DNA of 10,364 bases from Bdellovibrionota bacterium. GTDB lineage: Bacteria; Bdellovibrionota_C; UBA2361; OMII01. The stretch lies in the NCBI GenBank assembly GCA_044345405.1, contig JBIJBE010000067.1, forward strand, positions 1-10,364, written 5' to 3'. The first letter of the stretch is position 1. Each line of letters opens with the position of its first letter. The translations under genes and the position numbers were made by a program. Under the pieces are notes generated by a model, which had not been told where the DNA came from, searched no databases, and saw only the letters and a program-made list of their open reading frames with translations. Of the stretch, positions 1-10,009 are shown one piece after another.

Positions 1-104
1 ACAGACAACTGATTTCGACCCTCGCTTGACCCATCTCGGCGGTACAAGTAGCGGCTGCCTACTACAGTTCAGCTACTTACAAAAAAGCGATCGATCATCC
101 TATC

Positions 105-362
105 CTTCTCGCGCAGAAAGGGTTCCGAGTTGAGGTGGAGAACGGCACCGATTCCTTCAACAAGAAGATCCGAAACGCCGTGACCAGCAAGATCCCCAAC
201 ATCGTCATCATCGGCAACAAAGAAGTCGAGGAAGGGACGATTACCCTTCGTCGCTACTGCGTGAAGGAACAAGCCACGATGCCGCAAGGGGATTTCGTCG
301 CTCGACTCGAGCGGCTAAACCGAGAGCGCGTCATGGACAACTTCGCGGACACTGCCACATAG
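105..362 (+). pseudogene. thrS: 3' fragment of threonyl-tRNA synthetase (C-terminal anticodon-binding domain), disconnected from the catalytic domain
   Basis: The translation LAQKGFRVEVENGTDSFNKKIRNAVTSKIPNIVIIGNKEVEEGTITLRR matches the ThrRS anticodon-binding domain pattern (G-I/F-R-V-E-V..., KKIR.A...K.P...I.G.KE.E.GT.+.R). An in-frame TGA lies at 27-29, and the other two + frames upstream are not ThrRS-like. The domain identity is confident; the pseudogene status and the left boundary are inferred. Confidence 0.75.
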
Positions 363-1277
363 TCACTTCGGCGACTCGAGCTTTTCAGTCGGGCAGAGGC
401 GCGCTCGCTGAAATCGCTGCATGACGAGGAAGGTGATTGCTCCGGTAACGGCGTAACTTGAGAGCCTCATGACGTCGACTAAGAGCCCCTGAGCCACGGC
501 GTTTTGAGTCAGTTTTGACGCCGTCTCGACGAGGGTACTTTGACTGATGGCGGACATCGTCACCATCATCGGCGCTATCATGACGGACATCTCAGCGACT
601 TGACGGAACAACCGACGAACTGGCGCGAGCGACAGCCTCGAGACTTCAGCATCGGGTCGTAATGTGACCTGATATCCGAAACGATTAGTCCGGGACTCTT
701 TCGATAGATCCGTGCTTATGAGGCTCGTCACGAACCTATCTAAACGAGAAACCGGACTCAACGAAATAGTTACTCGCGTTGCCACTCCGCCTATCGAGCA
801 AGACATCTCACGCTTCCACGACGCCTCTTGCGGTCGTTTGAGATCGATTTGTGTCGCCTCGTCGCTGATTCTTTTAAGCTCGGCGATCGCCTCGCGATCA
901 CCCCCCATCTGTTTGCGTAAAATCAGTTCACAGACCTTAAAGGCCTCTTTACTTGGCGTGAAACCCTCAAGTATTCGGTATTTCTCTATGCACGTAGGAA
1001 GCTTGCTCGCATGATCCTTCAAACTCTGCAGCGTCGCCCGAACATCCGTATTGAGCACATGAATATTTGGTCCTCCTACCGAGAAACGGGCTACGATACC
1101 GTCCGCTAACTTCTCGCCAAGGAAGATGTTTCCAAGGGTGCTACTCGGGGCTTTGAGAGCTGAAAAAACACCTCCACTCGAGGAGCACTCGGTCGTCCTA
1201 GGTTCGACACTTTGGGCAGCGGCGCGCTCTGCGTCCGGTGGCTGTACCCCTGTTGTTCGAGTGTCGATCTGTCCCAT
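363..1277 (-). CDS. Hypothetical protein (304 aa) with a low-complexity N-terminus and one or two hydrophobic segments near the C-terminus
   Basis: Long ORF with an ATG start. Hydrophobic stretches are VAEMSVMIAPMMVTMSAI and LSSYAVTGAITFLVM. No family motif was recognised. Its stop codon directly abuts the stop of the thrS fragment. Confidence 0.7.
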   Translation of the reverse strand: MGQIDTRTTGVQPPDAERAAAQSVEPRTTECSSSGGVFSALKAPSSTLGNIFLGEKLADGIVARFSVGGPNIHVLNTDVRATLQSLKDHASKLPTCIEKYRILEGFTPSKEAFKVCELILRKQMGGDREAIAELKRISDEATQIDLKRPQEASWKREMSCSIGGVATRVTISLSPVSRLDRFVTSLISTDLSKESRTNRFGYQVTLRPDAEVSRLSLAPVRRLFRQVAEMSVMIAPMMVTMSAISQSTLVETASKLTQNAVAQGLLVDVMRLSSYAVTGAITFLVMQRFQRARLCPTEKLESPK

Positions 1278-1648: not shown

Positions 1649-2131
1649 ATGCACAAGCCTGACCAGGTCTGTCGGGTGTGTCAGCAACCCTCACCAATCT
1701 CAAGTTTTGGAGAAGTCTGCTCGAATGAATGCGCTGAGCGTCTTTCGGAGACGGAGTACTATGAACTTGAGCTAGTGGAGGCGGTTGCGGAACTGAGCGG
1801 GTTTGAGGAGGGAGTTTACCTTCCATTATTCCTCAAACTCGCGCGTGCCGAGGCCCAGTTGAAGTTCCTTGAGAACGGTATGCGTAACATCTCGCGGAGT
1901 GACCACATGGCCGCTACACCGAGCGACTCGCTCGAGGTTCGGGAGTGGAAAAAAGCTCAGCGGGAGCACGACACTTGGGCACTGTCTCTCGTAAAGAGTC
2001 CTTTGCGACGATTGCGGAAAAAAGTGCGCCAACTCGAGGAACAACTACGAGAGATTGACCAACGGTGGCAATCTCTCTCTGCCCAGAAGGAGGCCACGCT
2101 TGAGAAATTGAGCAAGGCGCGTGGAGACTAG
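1649..2131 (+). CDS. Hypothetical protein (160 aa) with an N-terminal C4 zinc-ribbon-like motif followed by a coiled coil
   Basis: Good RBS. The motif CRVC-x12-CSNEC is followed by a heptad-like charged helical C-terminus (LRRLRKKVRQLEEQLREIDQRWQSL). Confidence 0.8.
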   Translation: MHKPDQVCRVCQQPSPISSFGEVCSNECAERLSETEYYELELVEAVAELSGFEEGVYLPLFLKLARAEAQLKFLENGMRNISRSDHMAATPSDSLEVREWKKAQREHDTWALSLVKSPLRRLRKKVRQLEEQLREIDQRWQSLSAQKEATLEKLSKARGD

Positions 2132-2150: not shown

Positions 2151-2214
2151 GAGTGGGAACCGACACGCGTTGGTGACTACCTCACCGGTTTATCCAACGC
2201 GCGTCATCCCACTC
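2151..2214. other. Long imperfect inverted repeat / stem-loop
   Basis: GAGTGGGA (2151-2158) pairs with TCCCACTC (2207-2214), GAC (2162-2164) with GTC (2203-2205), and CGCGTTGG (2166-2173) with CCAACGCG (2194-2201). It starts 20 nt after the stop of the 1649 ORF and has no long U-tract. Confidence 0.7.
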
Positions 2215-2344
2215 CATAGTTTCCGCGGCAAGACTGCGATACTCACTACCGCCACACCGCCCGACCTTTCCACCCGATCCTCTTCGTTGTGTTGAATCGC
2301 CGCGTTAAAGGCAATCGCAGGGACCAACTCGACACCTCAAACCT

Positions 2345-2406
2345 GCCTCCCTGGTACAACCTACTTTGAAACCCCGCCTCCCTGGTACAACCTACTTTGA
2401 AACCCC
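2345..2406 (-). repeat. Left tandem repeat array of the HUH transposase element: 2 identical 31-bp units
   Basis: GCCTCCCTGGTACAACCTACTTTGAAACCCC occurs at 2345-2375 and 2376-2406. A partial unit (AAACCT, 2339-2344) precedes it and a degenerate inner copy (CCAGGACCATACTTTT, 2405-2420) follows. Confidence 0.95.
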
Positions 2407-2590
2407 AGGACCATACTTTTCCTTGATGAACCGAAGCAAACTAAGAGGAGACGCGCTTTAATTGCAGTTTTTAACAATAGACAGATCGAGAAGTGCGGAA
2501 ATCTATTGGTGAACACCGGCGAACTGTGGAGACGGACGGTTAGTTCGAACTTGCACTCTATGGAGAAAAAATAAAGCTTTTGGAGGCCAT

Positions 2591-3589
2591 TTAACCTGAC
2601 AACGGGAAAGCAAAGCCGGGGGGAAACCAAGGAATAAAAGTACCCGGCGGCCAATCGACGCGGATGCCAGCCTTAGCCTTGCGGTAACACTCCTTGCAGC
2701 GAGCGATGGTAAGTCGAAACGATTCAAGAAGTGATAGCCGTAGCTCTTTGTCGCTACAGATAACAAAGATCTTTCGCTCCTTTTTCTTCGGCTTGTGAGG
2801 CTTCATGTAGGGAGTTCGCTGTAAAGCCTCTCGAGAGGCACTCTTGGTGTGAGACTTAGCCCGAGCTACAGCGTTAGCGCGCTCTTTCTCCCTTACTCGA
2901 GCTATAATTCTTTGGCGAATCCGTTCAATCTCTTGAGGGGTCGTTATTCCAAAGGTCTCTAACCATTTAAAGGGCTTGATAACGAGCGGGTGCCGTACCG
3001 CTTTCTCAGAGTCTCTAAGCTCTCGATAGAGAGCCTCGTCTTGCCGTTGAGATAAAAGGCGCTTATTTGGGATCTGAGGGATCTCAGAAACGGGATACCA
3101 CCGAGCTTCAATTTCCACTTCAGTGTCAATTGATGGGGCGGAATCTTTAAATGCGGCCCAAGAGCTGAGGCCGGGATACTGATCAATGGATTCACAGAGT
3201 CCAGCATTGGACGGGTTACAATAGATGTAGACTACCCGCTCAATCGCATCCTCTAGTGTGGCGATATAAAGCACCCCTGTTCTCTTCTCCCATAGAGAGA
3301 GAGAGGAAAGCCCAAGAAGAGCTTTGACAGCATCGGTAGTCTTCTTTTTGAGTTCCATGTGAAACTTGCTTAGGTTTTCCTCCGTGATTGACACGGCCAT
3401 GGAGTGACTGTGACTATTCATGTCGACGAAATGACAGAGCTCCACCTTGTTGTCTCTCTGCGTCCTTCCGAGAATGCCTAAACGGATCTCGTTAGAGGTT
3501 TGGGTCGGGGGCATAGGAAGAGAGTCCTTCGCTCGAGGGACAATCTCATAAACCGATTTATTTGAATAAGTGCGGCAGTTTCGTGGCAT
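2591..3589 (-). CDS. REP-associated tyrosine transposase-like protein (RAYT/TnpA(REP), HUH Y1 superfamily) with a long basic C-terminal extension
   Basis: The N-terminus reads MPR..R....VYEIVPR. The HUH-like motif is HFVDMNSHSH (H60/H62), followed by LWEKR and the catalytic Tyr motif VVYIYCNPSNAGL (Y121), then DQYPGLSSW. This is the motif order of RAYT/IS200-like Y1 transposases. Confidence 0.85.
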   Translation of the reverse strand: MPRNCRTYSNKSVYEIVPRAKDSLPMPPTQTSNEIRLGILGRTQRDNKVELCHFVDMNSHSHSMAVSITEENLSKFHMELKKKTTDAVKALLGLSSLSLWEKRTGVLYIATLEDAIERVVYIYCNPSNAGLCESIDQYPGLSSWAAFKDSAPSIDTEVEIEARWYPVSEIPQIPNKRLLSQRQDEALYRELRDSEKAVRHPLVIKPFKWLETFGITTPQEIERIRQRIIARVREKERANAVARAKSHTKSASREALQRTPYMKPHKPKKKERKIFVICSDKELRLSLLESFRLTIARCKECYRKAKAGIRVDWPPGTFIPWFPPGFAFPLSG

Positions 3590-3627
3590 ACCGACGTATC
3601 GCCGCGCCCGTCTGGAAGTTGCGTGAA

Positions 3628-3668
3628 AAAGTTGGGTGTTCCAGGGAACGGCGAAAGTACCGTGTACC
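3628..3668 (+). repeat. Inner part of the right repeat array (one degenerate unit plus the first 18 bp of the unit interrupted by IS4)
   Basis: AAAGTTGGGTGTTCCAGGGAACG (3628-3650) differs at 4 of 23 positions from AAAGTACGGTGTACCAGGGAGCG. GCGAAAGTACCGTGTACC (3651-3668) is completed by AGTGAGCG at 5093-5100 once the IS is removed. Confidence 0.9.
3659..3668 (+). repeat. IS4 target-site duplication, left copy (ACCGTGTACC)
   Basis: The identical 10-mer at 5083-5092 immediately flanks the other inverted repeat. Confidence 0.92.
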
Positions 3669-5082
3669 CACGGCCATTAAGTTAAGCTCCAACCTGCCTA
3701 AAACACGGCTTTTCTAGCGAATTTCTGGAAGTGCAAACTCTTGGCGTTTGATTTCAAGGACAGTCGTTCCTTGTCTTTGAATCTATCGGGACGTTGCAAG
3801 GTGGGGCTGATCATGAACAATCGCCTTACCCGATCCTCAAAGTCTGGCGGTGGATCAAACATGAGTAGGATGATGGAATCTTTGATGGCGTGAAAGGAGA
3901 TGGCTTTGTTCACCTGCTGTCGATATCGTGTTCTCTTAGACGCCAGTTCGCCATTTACTTCCGCAGACAGTATTGTCTCCAAACCACTCACGAAGAGGGT
4001 GGAGAAGAAATCTTGCTTGATAGCCTCAACTGTTCTGCCCGTGAAGTTATCAATGGCAAGACGACTCTTAATAGCTTGAAAGAACGTCTCGATTCTCCAT
4101 CGCTTGTAGTAGAGCTTTTTGAAATCTTTTAGTGGGTATCGTTTTTGATCGAGAAGCGATGTCGCTAAGACCTCTACTTCCCCATCCCCGAGGACGATCC
4201 TAAGAAATCTCATGTGCAAACTATGCGGCAGCTCCGCGTCGTCATTGAACCGAGCCGGACGTTCAACTTCAGCGACAATATCGTTGCGAGTGGCATCGGT
4301 GAATAGTTGATGATAGCTCGCATAGGTTTTCTCCTTGATGCGAACGATAAAATCAGCTTTTCGTGCCGTTATTTCAGCAAAAAAAGCGTATGAACCGAAA
4401 CCTCGGTCAGCCATGAGAATGTCTCCAGCTTCGAGGATCTCAAGGTGCTGTAATGATGCCATGATATCATTCGTTCTGCCGGGATGAATGCTCCCCACCA
4501 GCGGTATCTCGTTGAGCACATCATACAGGACGGAGACTTTCGCTTCGACGTTGTCACACGCGACTTCCTGACGATCGTTCATATACCGGACCGTGCCGAA
4601 CGATTCGATGAGTTCCTTGCTTGTCGGAAGACGGAGAGTCGATCCATCGATTGCTAATAACCGGTGTCCCTTAAATCGCTTATGACCTCTGTCGTTGTAC
4701 ATTGGCTTCACCACGCACTCTTCAAGGAGTTCGATAAAAGCCGTATATCGAAATTTCTGACGAGCCTGGCTAAGGGCGCTCGCTGAGATGTACTCGTCAG
4801 CGTCGCGACACCACTCGTTCAATACGCGCTGGAGGGATTTGACGCTTTTTCTCAGCAGGAGGGTTAGCACTGTCGCGAAAGGGAGTTTGCGTTGTCTGGT
4901 AAAACTTCTCTCATCTCTTCGATGTCTTCGCAGGAATGTAGCGGAATCAGTTATAGTGGTGAAGGTTTTTAAAGTAGGCAGCATTTTTTATTTGCTGCGC
5001 GTCTACTCCATTCCATTAGCCAGGATAACTCTATGGTATCGCAAAACTTCTCGGTTAGATACTCCTTAACTTAATGGCCGTG
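3669..5082 (-). mobile_element. Complete IS4-family insertion sequence (1414 bp)
   Basis: Perfect 18-bp terminal inverted repeats CACGGCCATTAAGTTAAG (3669-3686) and CTTAACTTAATGGCCGTG (5065-5082), a 10-bp direct target duplication, and a single DDE transposase ORF. Confidence 0.95.
3698..4984 (-). CDS. IS4-family DDE transposase (428 aa)
   Basis: Motifs FTRQRKLPF, SALSQAR, LLAIDGS (D), MADRGF (D), and the YREK-type YYKRWRIETFFQAIK (E). Confidence 0.95.
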   Translation of the reverse strand: MLPTLKTFTTITDSATFLRRHRRDERSFTRQRKLPFATVLTLLLRKSVKSLQRVLNEWCRDADEYISASALSQARQKFRYTAFIELLEECVVKPMYNDRGHKRFKGHRLLAIDGSTLRLPTSKELIESFGTVRYMNDRQEVACDNVEAKVSVLYDVLNEIPLVGSIHPGRTNDIMASLQHLEILEAGDILMADRGFGSYAFFAEITARKADFIVRIKEKTYASYHQLFTDATRNDIVAEVERPARFNDDAELPHSLHMRFLRIVLGDGEVEVLATSLLDQKRYPLKDFKKLYYKRWRIETFFQAIKSRLAIDNFTGRTVEAIKQDFFSTLFVSGLETILSAEVNGELASKRTRYRQQVNKAISFHAIKDSIILLMFDPPPDFEDRVRRLFMISPTLQRPDRFKDKERLSLKSNAKSLHFQKFARKAVF

Positions 5083-5897
5083 ACCGTGTACCAGTGAGCG
5101 GGACCAGGGAGCGGGGCGAAAATACGGTGTACCAGGGAGCGGGCGAAAGTACCGTGTACCAGTGAGCGACCAGTGAGCGGGGCGAAAGTACGGTGTACCA
5201 GGGAGCGGAGCGCAACTCCCGGAACTCGGAGTTGCGAAGACTGACGCCCCGAATCGTGAGTACCGCAGCTAGCGGTCGCAAACGCATAAGAGGATGCGTG
5301 AATCGCTCGTCCGTCCACACCGTTTCCGTGCAAAGACTCCGCGAGAGAAGCCCTCGCGACGACGACCCGATCAGGGGCCCGGCGATTCAGGTGAGAGAGC
5401 GCTATCTCTAGCTGAGGAACACTTCCATCTTGATAGATCGTTCCGGCAACCGGAAATTCGATTCGTTCCCCTCTCTCTCCCAGGTGTCGACGAAAACCAA
5501 CTCCTCGCAACAAGACGGGTCGCTGAGCGATATCATTAACGCTCTGATTCGGCAGCTCTCTCCGTATCAATCGAGTATCCTCCGCCTCGGAGAATACCAG
5601 GCTTACAACACCATAGCCTTTTACCACGACAGACACGTTGATTGGGGCTATGCGCACTGTACAGTCTCTGTTCGGACACTCTCCATCCTTCAGAAGAAAA
5701 GGGAGCCTACGCAGTGAAAGAAGATCCCCTCGAATGGTCACGTTCGGCGAAAAAGACGCCGGCAGCGCTTCAGCGTAACCACACTGCAGAGCACATAGGG
5801 AGATGGCCAACGTTGTCATCCACCCTGAGATCTGTCGTCGATGAAACGTGCGCGGTTTGAAAAACATGAGGTCCGGGAAAAAGACGCTATACGCCAT
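5055..5897 (-). pseudogene. Probably 3'-truncated gene for a secreted protein; possibly the pro-region of a zinc metalloprotease
   Basis: Signal-peptide-like segment (WMTTLAISLCALQCGYAEA-LP), with an alternative start at ATG 5867. The last ~50 codons translate the repeat array and the IS4 end, and the stop lies inside the IS. A CGT motif just before the break resembles a cysteine switch, but no HExxH is present, so the function is speculative. Confidence 0.55.
5083..5207 (+). repeat. Outer part of the right repeat array: 26-bp units GCGAAA(G/A)TAC(C/G)GTGTACCAG(T/G)GAGCG with interspersed half-units
   Basis: Full units at 5116-5141, 5143-5168 and 5182-5207. Half-units ACCAG(G/T)GAGCGGG at 5103-5115 and 5169-5181. 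Positions 5083-5092 are the right copy of the IS4 target duplication. Confidence 0.95.
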
Positions 5898-6145: not shown

Positions 6146-9100
6146 ATGTTGACGCCGAAGCAACATCCCAAACATAAGCCGGCAGGGCCTGAATCAAACG
6201 TTACCCCCGACGCCACAGCCTCTTCCTACACACAGATGCGAGAAGCATCTCTTACGGTTCCCAAGCCATTTCCTCATAACCTTGTAGATGCCAGATCCCA
6301 CTTCTCGCCTCCTCGCTCGTCACTGATAGAGCGAGGAATCACCGCCGCGTGCCGAGAGTATCCGTCGGCTCTGCTTCACCTCATACGCTTCCTTCCGGTA
6401 TCTTTCACAACGAAATCACGAGTGGCAGAGTCTGTTCTGAGGGAACTTTCCTTTGAGGTTGCGATTGAGATACTGCCGAGACTTCGGTTCCCACGCTACG
6501 TCGAGAACGAACTCACCCAGACTTTCGCCGAAAAGGCTATTCAACGGTTTTCTTCGGCCGAATCATTCTGGAAGGCCGTAACCTTCAGACAGAAAACCGC
6601 ACTTCCACCCGACGAACGATTAGCACTGGCTTTGCGGTGCCTTAGGGTAGACCCGGTCAAAACGCTTGGGGTTGTCTCGACATTCGACCTGACAACTCCA
6701 AACCTCCAAGTACCATTTGCCCGCAGTGTGCTTTATTGCTCTGACGTAGCGGCGGTGTGCACGTTGCCGTGGCTGTCGTCACTTGGAACCTCCGATCCAG
6801 CAGGCGCGATGGAACTCGCTACTCTCTGCCTCTCGCACGACCCTTTTCATACGGCGAAGCATCTCGACAGGTTCGGGCTTCCGCTCTCTCCGCTCATTGA
6901 TAAGCTCCTGGATGAAGTCGGGGCGCGATATCGGTGGAAGATTCTCGCCACAGTGTGCGATCTACCAACACTGCCGGAGAACCTTCGAACGGCTCTGGCT
7001 GAGAGTTCTTCTGCCCACTATCCACACGAAACGCTCCGGCGCTTGAATATCTTCAAATTGCCTGAGGGCGACACCGTTATTAATCTTCTTAAGCACGGTC
7101 TCTCCCTAAATCCACGTGCTGTGGCGAGTTACGTTCAGAAACATGCCTCGCCTTTTTTTCGAGAGGTGGCTGAACATATTCTATGGCTTTATGTATCGGA
7201 CATGCCCTGGGAAGCGGCAGACGTCGCCATTCGGGTCGGGATCAATGACCAAAAACTCCTCTGGGTAATAGCCCAAGAAACATTCTCTCGCGATGCCTCT
7301 CGCTCTCTGCGCTTTATTCGAGAGAGCAAAATGTTCTCCCAGGAAACATTATGCGAAGCGGCGCTACAACTATCCGCGATTGATCCTATCTCCGTTTCTC
7401 GCAGCATCGCGCGATTCGGAAACCTTCCGGCTACAACTATAAAAACTATAGCCCTACGCGTCGCGCCCGCCGACCCCGAACGCGCGCTCACGTATCTCTC
7501 AACCTCACATTTTTCAAGCGAGGAGAGCCGTCGAGAGCTTCTTATCTCCATCGCGACATCTCATCGAGGGGCGGCTCTAGCCGCCGAGAATCTCTACAAC
7601 TGCCATTTCTCACGCCCGCACGACAAATTTGAGGTACTCACACGATGCATCGCAATGAATGCGGAATCTACCATCAAATGTCTTAGCCCTGCGTCTCTCT
7701 CGGAACGTATGCACGCAGAGCTCGTCGCACACGTGACAAAGGGAAACGAAAAAGAAGCGAAGCAACTTCTGCATAAAGTCGGCGTTTACTCCTCAAAGGC
7801 GCTTGAGGGGCTTTTCGGGCCCGATTTTATAGCCTCATTTGCTCCGGCTCCACACTCAGAATCGGCCACTCTCGCCCGCAAGGCCGTCGCGTCTACCCCA
7901 GCTAAAGTGGCGGCAAATATCCACAAGTTTAGCCTACCGCACGAGCGTGACCGCGTTGAGATAGCTGTCGCGTGTGCAAAGCGAGCCCCACGAGCTCTCA
8001 CAGACAACTTTTTAGCCTTCGGTATTTATTCTGAGAGCGGACGAAAAGACGTCGCCGCGGCGCTACTTCGAACCTCAGCGGAGTCGGTTCGAGAGGCCAT
8101 CAAGACCTGCGGAGTCACCTCAGATGCCGACATTCAAGACCTCGTAGCTCCCCTGGTTAACGCACGACCCAGAATGCTTGGGGCTTTGAAGAGCCTCACC
8201 CAAAAGCCCTGGTCGATACAGTTCTTCACGAGGCTCTTCTCTCAGGCGATTACTGAAGAAAGGTGGTCTCACGCGTTCGACGTCGGTACGATGGCGGCAC
8301 AAAGCGCCCTGGGGCGCGAACCTCGGCAAGCTGAGAGCCTCAAATCATTCGACGTTCTGCTTGCTGAGATGAAGAAGCTTCCTAACCTATCTGAGCAGAC
8401 CGCGTATCAGATCTCACTTTTGGAACGAGTGCGGCGAGCCGGCACTATTCCTGAGCGCGCTGTGTTACGTGCCTTCACCATCTTCGACGACAGTAGCGAT
8501 GCCTTTGTCGTTGAGGTTCTTCAGCAAGGTGGCCCATCGTCCGGGGCGAATATCGTCGAGGAGATGACCCGAGCCTATAGCAGAAAGAAAACGATCCCAG
8601 AATCGGACCGAGCGATCATAAGAGAGTTTATCTCCAGCGGGTTTCGAGGGTTCTCTCGAACCACTCTTACTGCGGCGATGAAGGCTTTCGGCAAATCGCC
8701 TGACGAAGGCCGACGACTTCTCGCGTCCTGGAAGGCGATCTCCTCGGCCATTCTTCAAGGCAAGCCCCTCGATAGAGAGCTTGAAGAGTCTCCACTTTTC
8801 CCAAACCTCATTTACGCGGCGTACCGACCAGTCGACCTTCGAGTAGCTAGCGTGGCAGCGCAGCTTCCCTACATCCCCGATAACTCTCACCATCTGACGC
8901 CTTGGAAATATCCCGCCAACGGCTACCCGATACACCTCGTTGAACTCGAGGAGATACGCCTGAAGCAGGACGAAACAATAGATCTCAACTCTCTACGGTC
9001 GGCGGCGACTCCGATTCTGTCTCTTTCATCAGCGCAGAGCACCTGCTCTCACGATGAGTTTGTGCAGATCCTTGTCAAAGCGTCTCAGCGTGGGATCGAT

Positions 9101-10009
9101 AGCATTAACAAAGCTAAACTCGTTAAATTCCTCGCTACCCACTCTCGCGATATTCGTGCCGAAGGAACCAATCGAGAGCTTTCCAGCTTGCTCGTTGACA
9201 ACGTCTCGCCTCAGCATGCGGCTCAAGCAATCGACAGGATGAGATCCTTCTTCAACGTGGTCTATGGGGATATGCTCGATCTAGCCCTCAGGGCCTACTT
9301 TGATGGTGGCCGCCTCGAGCTACGAGACCAATTCAAGGCTCGGATAAGGAACATCCTTAAACTACCCGCTGAAGCAGAGATTACGCTCGATCAGATTCGT
9401 GAAACCGTGAGAGGAGAGCTCGATAAGGTGTGGCGGCATGAGCGAACACTCCTCAACCGAGAAAGCCGGAAGTTCACACATCAGATCGGGACGATGCATG
9501 CCGAATACCGGATGTATCTCAGCAAAGCCCGCTCGGCGTTCTTTGGACGCGCAGGGGCGGGCCTGTGCACTCACGACGACTTGTGGAGCTGGAACGAGGC
9601 AAGCTTCCTTCAAATGATCATGGTCGACGAGCGTAAGGGGAGCGTTGTTGGCAACATTCAGCTCCATATCTTTGACGCTCCGGATGGCAAGAGGTCGGTC
9701 CTCGCTCGAATCAATCCGACCGAGAAGTTCCTCTTAACTGTTAGCCCAAAGACCCTTGCGACCGAAATGCTCGGGAGTGTTGAAACGTTCGCCAGAGAGA
9801 ACAACCTGGAAACCTACCTTCCTGGGGCCCACTGTCACCTTCACCTTCTCACCAATCGCGAGTCCTTCGCGCCCCTTCTCAAAGCCAGATACGGGGAGCG
9901 TTTTATGCACGACGTTAAGGTATCGGGTTGGTTAGAGGTGAATGAGATATATCGGCTCATGCCGCCAGTTCTCGAGGGAAACACCTCCTCCCCTCAATCA
10001 AGCCATTAA
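6146..10009 (+). CDS. Large hypothetical protein (1287 aa) with degenerate ~30-aa alpha-helical repeats and a C-terminal alpha/beta domain
   Basis: Uninterrupted 3.86-kb ORF. A 30-aa periodicity is visible over about residues 150-680. No named family was recognised. The start codon is uncertain, with GAGGA at 6131-6135 upstream of ATG 6146. Confidence 0.85.
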   Translation: MLTPKQHPKHKPAGPESNVTPDATASSYTQMREASLTVPKPFPHNLVDARSHFSPPRSSLIERGITAACREYPSALLHLIRFLPVSFTTKSRVAESVLRELSFEVAIEILPRLRFPRYVENELTQTFAEKAIQRFSSAESFWKAVTFRQKTALPPDERLALALRCLRVDPVKTLGVVSTFDLTTPNLQVPFARSVLYCSDVAAVCTLPWLSSLGTSDPAGAMELATLCLSHDPFHTAKHLDRFGLPLSPLIDKLLDEVGARYRWKILATVCDLPTLPENLRTALAESSSAHYPHETLRRLNIFKLPEGDTVINLLKHGLSLNPRAVASYVQKHASPFFREVAEHILWLYVSDMPWEAADVAIRVGINDQKLLWVIAQETFSRDASRSLRFIRESKMFSQETLCEAALQLSAIDPISVSRSIARFGNLPATTIKTIALRVAPADPERALTYLSTSHFSSEESRRELLISIATSHRGAALAAENLYNCHFSRPHDKFEVLTRCIAMNAESTIKCLSPASLSERMHAELVAHVTKGNEKEAKQLLHKVGVYSSKALEGLFGPDFIASFAPAPHSESATLARKAVASTPAKVAANIHKFSLPHERDRVEIAVACAKRAPRALTDNFLAFGIYSESGRKDVAAALLRTSAESVREAIKTCGVTSDADIQDLVAPLVNARPRMLGALKSLTQKPWSIQFFTRLFSQAITEERWSHAFDVGTMAAQSALGREPRQAESLKSFDVLLAEMKKLPNLSEQTAYQISLLERVRRAGTIPERAVLRAFTIFDDSSDAFVVEVLQQGGPSSGANIVEEMTRAYSRKKTIPESDRAIIREFISSGFRGFSRTTLTAAMKAFGKSPDEGRRLLASWKAISSAILQGKPLDRELEESPLFPNLIYAAYRPVDLRVASVAAQLPYIPDNSHHLTPWKYPANGYPIHLVELEEIRLKQDETIDLNSLRSAATPILSLSSAQSTCSHDEFVQILVKASQRGIDSINKAKLVKFLATHSRDIRAEGTNRELSSLLVDNVSPQHAAQAIDRMRSFFNVVYGDMLDLALRAYFDGGRLELRDQFKARIRNILKLPAEAEITLDQIRETVRGELDKVWRHERTLLNRESRKFTHQIGTMHAEYRMYLSKARSAFFGRAGAGLCTHDDLWSWNEASFLQMIMVDERKGSVVGNIQLHIFDAPDGKRSVLARINPTEKFLLTVSPKTLATEMLGSVETFARENNLETYLPGAHCHLHLLTNRESFAPLLKARYGERFMHDVKVSGWLEVNEIYRLMPPVLEGNTSSPQSSH

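Follow-up and report, generated by a model that had tools for sequence, protein, structure and literature searches.

A candidate TIRtron-like module: a RAYT-like Y1 HUH endonuclease gene between opposed tandem repeat arrays in a Bdellovibrionota contig

RAYT-like genes that carry terminal inverted repeats (TIRs), and not REPs, were named TIRYT/TIRtron in 2013 (Di Nocera et al., PMC3733652), in an account whose text describes some of the TIRs in dimers or clusters and reports a common motif, GGGGWSAS, for the majority group. A later survey (Quentin et al. 2018, PMC6006769) equated TIRYTs with TnpA(Y1) subclass 2.1, corresponding to Bertels Group 1, assigned to this subclass the C-terminal helix-turn-helix (HTH) domains Bac_DnaA_C, HTH_23, and HTH_28 and detected repeats beside neither subclass 2.1 nor subclass 2.3. 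The better-known REPtrons of E. coli possess variable numbers of tandem repeats (BIMEs) beside the gene (Ton-Hoang et al. 2012, PMC3333891); their REPs are described there as 30-40-nt imperfect palindromes with a 5' GTAG whose binding needs a mismatch in the hairpin, and the TnpA(REP) enzyme as one that needs both the mismatched hairpin and the GTAG and does not bind double-stranded substrates. Here, we analyze a 10,364-nt stretch of DNA (the window, contig JBIJBE010000067.1 of the Bdellovibrionota bacterium assembly GCA_044345405.1), in which the gene of a 332-aa RAYT-like Y1 HUH endonuclease (2591-3589, minus strand) stands between arrays of a non-palindromic repeat that face in opposite directions. 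We consider it likely, with a probability of roughly 60%, that this locus is a TIRtron-like module belonging to a previously unclassified branch of RAYT/TnpA(Y1) class-2 enzymes, with its own recognition sequence flanking the gene in opposed orientation. A sequence-only reading of the window had put forward a candidate undescribed element class, while noting that RAYT-like genes with flanking inverted repeats had been reported. Such genes are indeed described (PMC3733652) and, with TIRYT/TIRtron and subclass 2.1 already published (2013 and 2018), the class claim falls: the locus is not a new class, but a TIRtron-like one set apart by its motif, its C-terminal region, and the tandem arrays at its ends.

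Opposed repeats around the gene in the window and in related loci

On the downstream side of the gene, the array consists of two perfect 31-bp units, GCCTCCCTGGTACAACCTACTTTGAAACCCC (2345-2406, plus strand; TRF period 31, 2.0 copies, 100% matches), in which the core CTGGTACAACCTAC was matched by pattern at 2351-2364 and 2382-2395 (plus strand). Inward of these lies a degenerate third copy at ~2403-2425, the innermost on this side, which was read from the sequence as GGAAAAGTATGGTCCTGGGG on the minus strand and is not recovered by a pattern search for CTGGWACANNSTAS with ≤1 mismatch. A non-coding spacer (2426-2590, minus strand), whose sequence is not conserved between subclades, leads from the stop codon to the repeats, and the first full unit begins 192 nt past the stop codon. 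On the upstream side, the innermost copy (3623-3652, minus strand; the anchor copy) has the core CTGGAACACCCAAC at 3644-3631, one mismatch away from the pattern, and its T-run ends 38 nt before the ATG, a position that is identical in the loci of the window's own clade (clade A, below). It is followed outward by the inner part of a unit (3650-3668, minus strand; direct repeat family D2) whose remainder, at 5083-5099, lies beyond an IS4-family insertion sequence, and then by the outer array (5083-5207, minus strand), which comprises the rest of this split unit, three full 27-28-bp units, and two partial ones. The outer units read GCTC[C/A]CTGGTACAC[C/G]GTA[C/T]TTTCGCCCC on the minus strand, with pattern matches at 5122-5135, 5149-5162, and 5188-5201 (minus strand), and the repeat finder placed copies of GGCGAAAGTACCGTGTACC (family D2) at 3650-3668, 5115-5133, 5142-5160, and 5181-5199; TRF rows over 5083-5208 have periods of 66, 39, and 27, with partial-unit periods of 13 and 11. 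The upstream side therefore holds four full units (one of them split), two partial units (~5100-5112 and ~5168-5178), and one innermost copy. The sequence-only reading had counted four full units and one degenerate, and had described the innermost copies as the most degenerate on each side; its four full units stand, to which the two partial units have to be added, and its remark on degeneracy holds for the downstream copy but not for the upstream anchor copy, which of all copies is the closest to the family consensus.

Six inverted-repeat pairs join left arms at 2347-2367 and 2378-2398 to right arms within 5119-5205 (21 nt each, 81-90% complementary), and the opposed arrays have the common core CTGGWACA-NNS-TAS. 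With ≤1 mismatch, CTGGWACANNSTAS occurs six times in the window, always within the arrays (two left on the plus strand, four right on the minus strand), against an expectation of 0.17 and a count that none of 200 shuffles reached. TRF, repeat finder, and pattern count thus confirm the opposed arrays with a shared core around the transposase gene that had been noticed by eye. The insertion that interrupts them is 1414 bp long (3669-5082, minus strand), has perfect 18-nt inverted repeats as its ends (3669-3686 and 5065-5082), encodes an IS4 transposase (open reading frame [ORF] at 3698-4984, minus strand; PF01609, E 6.8e-22; NF033592, E 4.3e-58), and is flanked by a 10-bp duplication, ACCGTGTACC, at 3659-3668 and 5083-5092. 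Removing it together with one copy of ACCGTGTACC restores a complete repeat unit, which bears out the earlier view that an IS4 splits the right array and identifies the IS4 as a later, unrelated insertion.

The related loci on which the comparison rests number 42, from 23 assemblies (genome bins) other than the source genome of the window; they come from one genome scan, were oriented with the gene on the plus strand, and are labeled Bdellovibrionota (25), Deltaproteobacteria or delta proteobacterium (4), and Proteobacteria or Pseudomonadota (13). Within 450 nt upstream of the gene, the pattern GG[TA]ACANNNTA[CG] was found 36 times in forward and never in reverse orientation, whereas within 750 nt downstream it was found 44 times in reverse and four times forward, these four being palindromic cores readable both ways; inside the family genes it does not occur. 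The 14-mer CTRGWACANNSTAS gave 83 hits near the gene, only two of them in the unexpected orientation, compared to ~0.6 expected across all 307,075 bases. This strict pattern detected the motif in 18 of 32 evaluable upstream and 26 of 35 downstream flanks, and on both sides in 14 of the 26 loci with both flanks; a relaxed pattern, for which chance predicts ~0.03 matches per upstream and ~0.07 per downstream flank, detected it in all 32 upstream and 33 of 35 downstream flanks, and on both sides in 24 of the 26 loci. The first downstream motif was found 170-389 nt past the stop codon in 20 of 21 sources, mostly at 170-280 nt, and DNA similarity between the window and 11 loci, which starts at the stop codon, ceases at 3643-3651. 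A check suggested by the sequence-only reading, that homologs be examined for related inverted repeats on both flanks, has therefore come out in its favor, and since the homologs carry them, opposed flanking repeats are, on the evidence of these counts, a trait of the family.

A position matrix of 137 copies gives C-T-G-G-W-A-C-A, and the unit as a whole is a linear sequence of ~17-30 bp made up of a C-rich lead, CTGGWACA, three variable bases, TA flanked by C/G, and a T-run, with a tetranucleotide that is degenerate across the family ([CG]TA[CG]). In a maximum-likelihood tree of 29 full-length proteins, which fall into three groups, the inner motif is TACT(TT) in the clade that includes the window (clade A), TAGA(A) in the second clade (B), and in the third (L027-L029) GCACTTCTAAAAC in L028 and L029 and the related ACACCTCTAAAAC in L027, whereas the outer CTGG(T/A)ACA is kept in all clades. 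Between the two ends of a single locus, on average 2.28 of 17 positions differ, compared to 4.45 between ends of different, non-orthologous loci, and none of 5000 permutations reached the observed value. The motif variant thus follows the protein tree and the two ends of a locus resemble each other more than ends from different loci, which is the co-variation that the sequence-only reading had proposed to look for. The outer upstream copies of the window and of L011 have the downstream variant and the innermost copy has the clade consensus, as expected if outer copies were copied between ends.

None of these units behaves as a hairpin. For single units, folding energies of -0.8 to -1.3 kcal/mol do not improve on those of shuffles; the left array does no better than shuffles either (z +0.08 and +0.42), and every one of 200 shuffles folds better than the right array (128 nt), whichever strand is taken (z +3.15 and +3.95), owing to its strong strand asymmetry (G-rich reading outward, C-rich inward). 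RNAalifold found 0 pairs in 18 upstream regions. We rejected a hairpin or REP reading of the units on the strength of DNA folding on both strands and of RNAalifold, and the observation that they have no REP-type long palindrome is upheld. The GTAC-N3-GTAC pairing that had been pointed out in the window turned out to be a local accident, the commonest family core, GGAACACCCTAC, being unable to pair in this way. GTAG as a strand-specific tag was also considered and dropped, as the four bases are CTAC, GTAG, CTAG, or GTAC depending on the locus and are not always inverted between the ends (L014, L019). In the subclade of L004, L007, and L025, the inner half of the upstream motif can form a stem with the bases just before the ATG (z -1.5 to -1.9); this stem is not conserved.

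Between the anchor copy and the start codon lies a promoter-like block (3590-3622, minus strand; a putative function) composed of GCAACTT (3622-3616), 14 nt, CGATAC (3601-3596), 6 nt, and the ATG, before which there is no Shine-Dalgarno-like sequence. The block is kept in 18 of 18 clade-A upstream regions and is visible in the other clades, and across clades the 60 nt upstream can be written as GCAACTT, 13-14 nt, (C/T)CGA(A/T)(A/T)A, 6-9 nt, ATG. Attack-phase promoters of B. bacteriovorus that depend on FliA/sigma-28 are described as TTAAG-N16-CCGATA (PMC3627812); the second box of the block equals their CCGATA, whereas the first box is unlike theirs. As a promoter, the putative block would give a leaderless or nearly leaderless mRNA. 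A scan of 2200-5400 for sigma-70 promoters and one for intrinsic terminators returned 0 sites each.

The Y1 HUH enzyme and its closest described relatives

The 332-aa protein has the catalytic motifs H60-S-H62, W100-E101, and Y121-IYC-N125-P126, and among 19 sequences, down to 25% identity, H60, H62, Y121, N125, and P126 do not vary; between the HuH histidines, where the window protein has serine, family members have S, G, N, T, A, or V. NF047646 matches the window protein at E 6.6e-8 (32.6 bits, under the cut-off of 80) and 16 of 17 distant members at 19-59 bits, all sub-cut-off. Pfam has no family for the window protein; PF01797 does not match it and matches 7 of 21 members, at best with E 0.012. 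A profile of 21 members had a single match among PDB sequences, the E. coli TnpA(REP) 4ER8 (E 0.0015), on which query residues 39-139 align to chain residues 38-133 with NHSH on EHMH and YIYCNP on YIYINP. An AlphaFold2 model of the whole protein (predicted local distance difference test score [pLDDT] 87.1, predicted template modeling score [pTM] 0.85) also had 4er8_A as its best Foldseek match (E 1.1e-6, template modeling score 0.71 on the target), followed by the TnpA structures of ISDra2 and IS608. Taking profile, predicted fold, and invariant residues together, the window protein is a member of the Y1 HUH endonuclease superfamily (TnpA(Y1)), in agreement with the RAYT-like assignment in the sequence-only reading. 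Within that superfamily, Y-x3-NP is described as marking TnpA(Y1) class 2 and Y-x3-Q as marking IS200 (PMC6006769), and the Y-x3-NP signature therefore places the protein in TnpA(Y1) class 2, the RAYT clade.

The remainder of the protein is a conserved, family-specific C-terminal region of ~190 aa that ends in WPPGTFIPWFPP. Pfam detected no Bac_DnaA_C, HTH_23, or HTH_28 in any of 21 members at E ≤10, and neither Pfam nor NCBIfam yielded anything convincing. Modeled alone, the C-terminal half found no PDB match by Foldseek (best E 1.5, probability ≤0.09), a weak negative because the isolated model itself is only moderate (pLDDT 75.9, pTM 0.48). The family is sizeable, comprising 144 clusters at 90% identity (E ≤0.001), or 650 representatives at 50% identity at E ≤0.001 and 400 at E ≤1e-10, mostly of ~330 aa.

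Our comparison with TIRtrons follows their description in text and not a direct comparison of TIR sequences. At this level, the locus shares with them a long RAYT-like Y1 HUH protein that exceeds classical RAYTs in length; bracketing inverted repeats, with arms of 17-21 nt, at roughly fixed distances from the coding sequence in place of GTAG-tagged REP hairpins; an occasional arrangement of the repeats in dimers or clusters; and several divergent genes per genome, each with its own repeat. It differs in that GGGGWSAS was not found here, where the core of the 137-copy matrix is CTGGWACA, and in having tandem end arrays with partial units. Compared to subclass 2.1, the proteins lack an HTH domain by Pfam, the window protein has 332 aa against a subclass median of 238, and the residue between the HuH histidines is S, G, N, T, A, or V where subclass 2.1 has V, Y, or F. 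Subclass 2.3 is similar in its median length of ~325 aa, its several divergent copies per genome with no REP nearby, its WE motif, and its long subclass-specific C-terminal tail, all as described in the text of PMC6006769. In contrast, the 55-aa insertion of subclass 2.3 (beta3-alphaC) is missing here, the spacing from HuH to Tyr being like that of 4ER8; NHYH and YVDLNP there stand against NxHSH and YIYCNP here; and subclass 2.3 is reported in Chromatiales and Alteromonadales, whereas our loci bear Bdellovibrionota, Deltaproteobacteria, and Proteobacteria/Pseudomonadota labels.

The REPtron of E. coli (tnpA(REP)/RAYT) provides the best match in sequence and fold and shares Y-x3-NP, and it, too, is a module that does not act like an active unit, with local repeat amplification proposed and vertical inheritance described (PMC3333891). 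Its repeats fold where the units here do not, which retain only the tetranucleotide [CG]TA[CG]; the window protein, at 332 aa, is twice as long as the 165-residue 4ER8 chain; and the GTAG-contacting WQ...EH..R of the REPtron enzyme is replaced by W100-E101-x-R103. The TnpA proteins of IS200/IS605 share the Y1 HUH fold (Foldseek ranks 2-20), but none of their other features, namely Y-x3-Q, proteins of ~150 aa, direct-orientation subterminal hairpins, and near-identical copies, was seen here. The locus thus has the general organization of a TIRtron and is without the REPtron hairpin, GGGGWSAS, the HTH domain, and the subterminal hairpins and near-identical copies of IS200/IS605. In the literature read on RAYT, REPtrons, TIRYT, and TnpA(Y1), we found neither this family nor tandem non-palindromic arrays beside a RAYT-like gene, a point on which the figures and supplements of PMC3733652 and PMC6006769 may bear.

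Residence, array turnover, and competing explanations

Between two and six family loci are present in 9 of the 23 assemblies, the upper end being above what is usual for RAYTs. Paralogs are homologous from the upstream repeat to the downstream repeat and not beyond (L006/L007, L007/L037), and the window, L001, L002, L011, and L013 share 73-82% protein identity with no flanking synteny by tblastx, by which the control pair L004/L025 aligns over 7985 aa. Distinct copies within one assembly have 66-94% DNA identity, and the matches at 99-100% are overlaps of 119-127 nt at contig ends. Four sets (L004/L006/L025, L005 with L033/L036, L009/L010, and L028/L029) retain synteny between species-level genomes, with the gene about as similar as its flanks. 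The ORF is intact in 28 of 29 full-length genes, and the ratio of nonsynonymous to synonymous divergence (dN/dS) is 0.070-0.117 in seven pairs with estimable dS, dS being saturated in two window pairs. No target-site duplications were seen at the ends that were read. Several contigs end within the family gene, and decayed or truncated copies occur as the second copy in L017, at L013:3741-4007, and, by an in-frame stop, in L006. The idea that the arrays are the ends of a ~1.44-kb mobile element is therefore right in part: homology does stop at the repeats and contexts are unrelated, but there are no near-identical copies and four sets are inherited in place. Across the sampled assemblies, the low copy number, divergent paralogs, and vertical inheritance typical of RAYTs are present, and the sequence record points to long vertical residence with occasional relocation, unlike an active insertion sequence. 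The same residence pattern is described, in the text of PMC6006769 and PMC5581495, for class-2 TnpA(Y1)/RAYT genes as opposed to insertion sequences.

Two of the damaged copies can be described more closely. Located 1.3 kb upstream of the intact gene, the decayed second copy of L013 (3484-4007) begins with duplicated left ends that include the promoter-like block and continues with an 88-aa ORF that keeps only the N-terminal motif of the family, followed by a J-domain-like ORF. The gene of L006 (5001-5984) has an in-frame stop at codon 44, is otherwise full length with ~88% DNA identity to the syntenic L004, and reflects either recent pseudogenization or a mistake in the assembly.

The arrays themselves are less stable than their surroundings. 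TRF detected tandem repetition in 22 of the 33 upstream and in 18 of the 40 downstream flanks, where at least four of the downstream rows (L008, L015, L026, L029) are without the motif by eye. Their periods fall into classes of 11-20 bp (the C-rich lead and the first 4-10 core bases), 25-38 bp (whole units), and 47-151 bp (unit plus subterminal sequence). Orthologous loci differ in copy number of the units and in outer sequence (L004/L006/L025, and L009 compared to L010), so that arrays turn over faster than the flanking genes. Units also occur away from a family gene, as solo arrays in L024, L005, and L037 and as a 120-bp doublet at L026:4115-4235 with one left-type and one right-type core, which folds into a hairpin with a 12-bp stem (-20.1 kcal/mol, z -1.99, equaled by 4 of 200 shuffles); no gene remnants were found beside these solo forms by tblastn. 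In L037:320-1330, right-end-type units of two motif variants are interleaved over ~1 kb and subterminal sequence is repeated at ~114 bp, which looks like a hot spot where the ends of different paralogs accumulate.

Much of this could be expected of an autonomous insertion sequence, a new family related to IS200/IS605 with true terminal inverted repeats that still moves as a 1.3-1.4-kb unit and leaves the arrays as side products, for instance as footprints or through aborted events. Paralog homology bounded by the repeats, the multiple loci per assembly, relatives of 73-82% identity in unrelated flanks, the damaged copies in L017, L013, and L006, the L026 doublet, which resembles a miniature inverted-repeat transposable element, and the contigs that end inside the gene all fit such an element. 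Nevertheless, we think this unlikely, as no assembly holds distinct near-identical copies, the four cross-species syntenic sets show gene divergence like that of their flanks, dN/dS is 0.07-0.12 over saturated dS, the ends that were read carry no target-site duplication, and the promoter-like block conserved in all clades fits host-integrated regulation; in addition, described class-2 TnpA(Y1) genes behave alike (PMC6006769, in its text).

Less probable still is that the repeats are regulatory or structural sites and not catalytic substrates, i.e., autoregulatory operators or host repeats beside which the gene is kept. The innermost upstream copy is fixed 38 nt from the start codon beside the promoter-like block, and linear, non-palindromic units would suit double-strand binding by the C-terminal region; however, in 33 of 35 evaluable flanks the inverted motif also lies 170-389 nt past the stop codon, where an operator has no role, the HuH motif and the tyrosine are invariant under strong purifying selection, and solo arrays and a doublet occur away from any gene. 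That the arrays could be slippage products unrelated to the gene, or footprints of other elements such as IS4 lying beside it by chance, we regard as refuted for practical purposes. An IS4 did insert in the array of the window with a 10-bp duplication, and the partial units, at 11-13 bp, are about as long as such duplications, but they cover another part of the unit, the motif is kept in its orientation in relatives that have no homolog of the IS4 transposase (no tblastn match in any of the 42 loci), no shuffle of the window out of 200 reaches its motif count, and the 83 near-gene hits far exceed the ~0.6 expected.

Several observations weigh against the TIRtron-like module that we prefer. Described class-2 members have a hydrophobic residue between the HuH histidines (as stated in PMC6006769), and by alignment the central residue here is unlike it. 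The units lack the hairpin that TnpA(REP) needs. Outside the immediate flanks, only 22 strict hits fall in 240,821 bases, several of them in solo clusters; the motif is missing from 2 of 35 downstream flanks by the relaxed pattern and from many loci by the strict one. Partial units break at variable points (after CTGGT, CTGGTAC, CTGGAACA, and others), so the arrays do not mark one nick site. Finally, shared ancestry of the loci inflates both the co-variation and its permutation test, which therefore shows that ends pair by lineage and is no independent proof of function.

If the TIRtron-like reading holds, the enzyme should, by homology, cut single-stranded DNA and rejoin it through a 5'-phosphotyrosine link, as established for TnpA of IS200/IS605 and for TnpA(REP) (described in PMC3333891), and it would bind, nick, or rejoin DNA at the flanking units. 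These are its most likely substrate because their position and orientation are conserved, they co-vary with the protein, and they are the only conserved non-coding feature besides the promoter-like block. With no hairpin in the units, recognition must differ from that of REPs or need both ends: the opposed ends, or a doublet, might pair into a single-strand stem that replaces the REP hairpin, and exactly such a paired stem is formed in the predicted fold of the L026 doublet; alternatively, the C-terminal half might read linear or duplex DNA. Tandem growth could come about through repeated cut-and-rejoin between neighboring units, as proposed for BIMEs (PMC3333891), or through replication slippage or stalling at a tightly bound protein, and the variable break points of the partial units fit slippage better than cut-and-rejoin. 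Repeated action or stalling at the ends might also seed the occasional solo arrays and small doublets nearby. On evolutionary time scales, the whole module would have relocated, while today it would be resident, vertically inherited, and under selection.

A more far-reaching version of the TIRtron-like reading, which we offer tentatively and hold to be doubtful, is that the family forms a separate, sizeable subclass of domesticated Y1 HUH enzymes that gave up hairpin recognition, read a linear site of ~17-30 nt via the C-terminal half or via paired ends, and 'write' tandem copies at their borders and nearby, their expression in Bdellovibrionota-type bacteria being driven by a conserved, leaderless promoter of the sigma-28-like type. 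If true, such a system would generate repeats by a mode of recognition that has not been described for HUH transposases. The family bears on the role of RAYT-like enzymes that lack REPs (Group 1, subclasses 2.1 and 2.3, and TIRYTs), in that it offers dozens of natural, co-varying enzyme-site pairs, a short, linear, and easily synthesized site, and array turnover that is visible between orthologs, making specificity and the amplification step directly testable. HUH enzymes that covalently link to defined single-stranded sequences are tools for protein-DNA tagging, for which orthogonal, hairpin-free sites would be useful. Should the enzyme prove inactive on the repeats, what remains is a new family annotation for Bdellovibrionota-type genome bins.

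Other features of the window

Surrounding genes offer no common context: none of the 42 loci is syntenic with the window by tblastn with seven neighboring ORFs, by blastn, or by tblastx, and Rfam had 0 matches at threshold in the window. Two ORFs without a family match lie on the downstream side of the gene (363-1277, minus strand; 1649-2131, plus strand), and a 1287-aa ORF at 6146-10009 (plus strand), which has no Pfam or NCBIfam match at E ≤0.01, adjoins none of the related loci searched.

The window begins with the 3' end of thrS (threonyl-tRNA synthetase; 1-362, plus strand; by model match). The model match, in frame 3, runs from ~nt 60 on, and a TGA lies inside the frame at 25-27; the gene may be broken, or the TGA may fall in a divergent stretch. 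Within this 3' coding sequence, 41 nt (68-108) are 92.7% identical to L017:5853-5893, directly beside the L017 family gene, which is truncated at residue 285, and the same region has 80.8% identity over 52 nt to L008:1779-1830; nothing further is alike around the three sites. A thrS adjacency common to the window and L017 was considered and rejected, the match being a stretch of 13 aa only.

On the outer side of the upstream array, a 280-aa ORF without family matches (5055-5897, minus strand) spans the entire outer array and reaches into the end of the insertion sequence, so that its ~50 last residues are translated repeats. Directly outside the array, at ~5209-5239, there is an inverted repeat with a 9-bp stem, CGCAACTCC...GGAGTTGCG.

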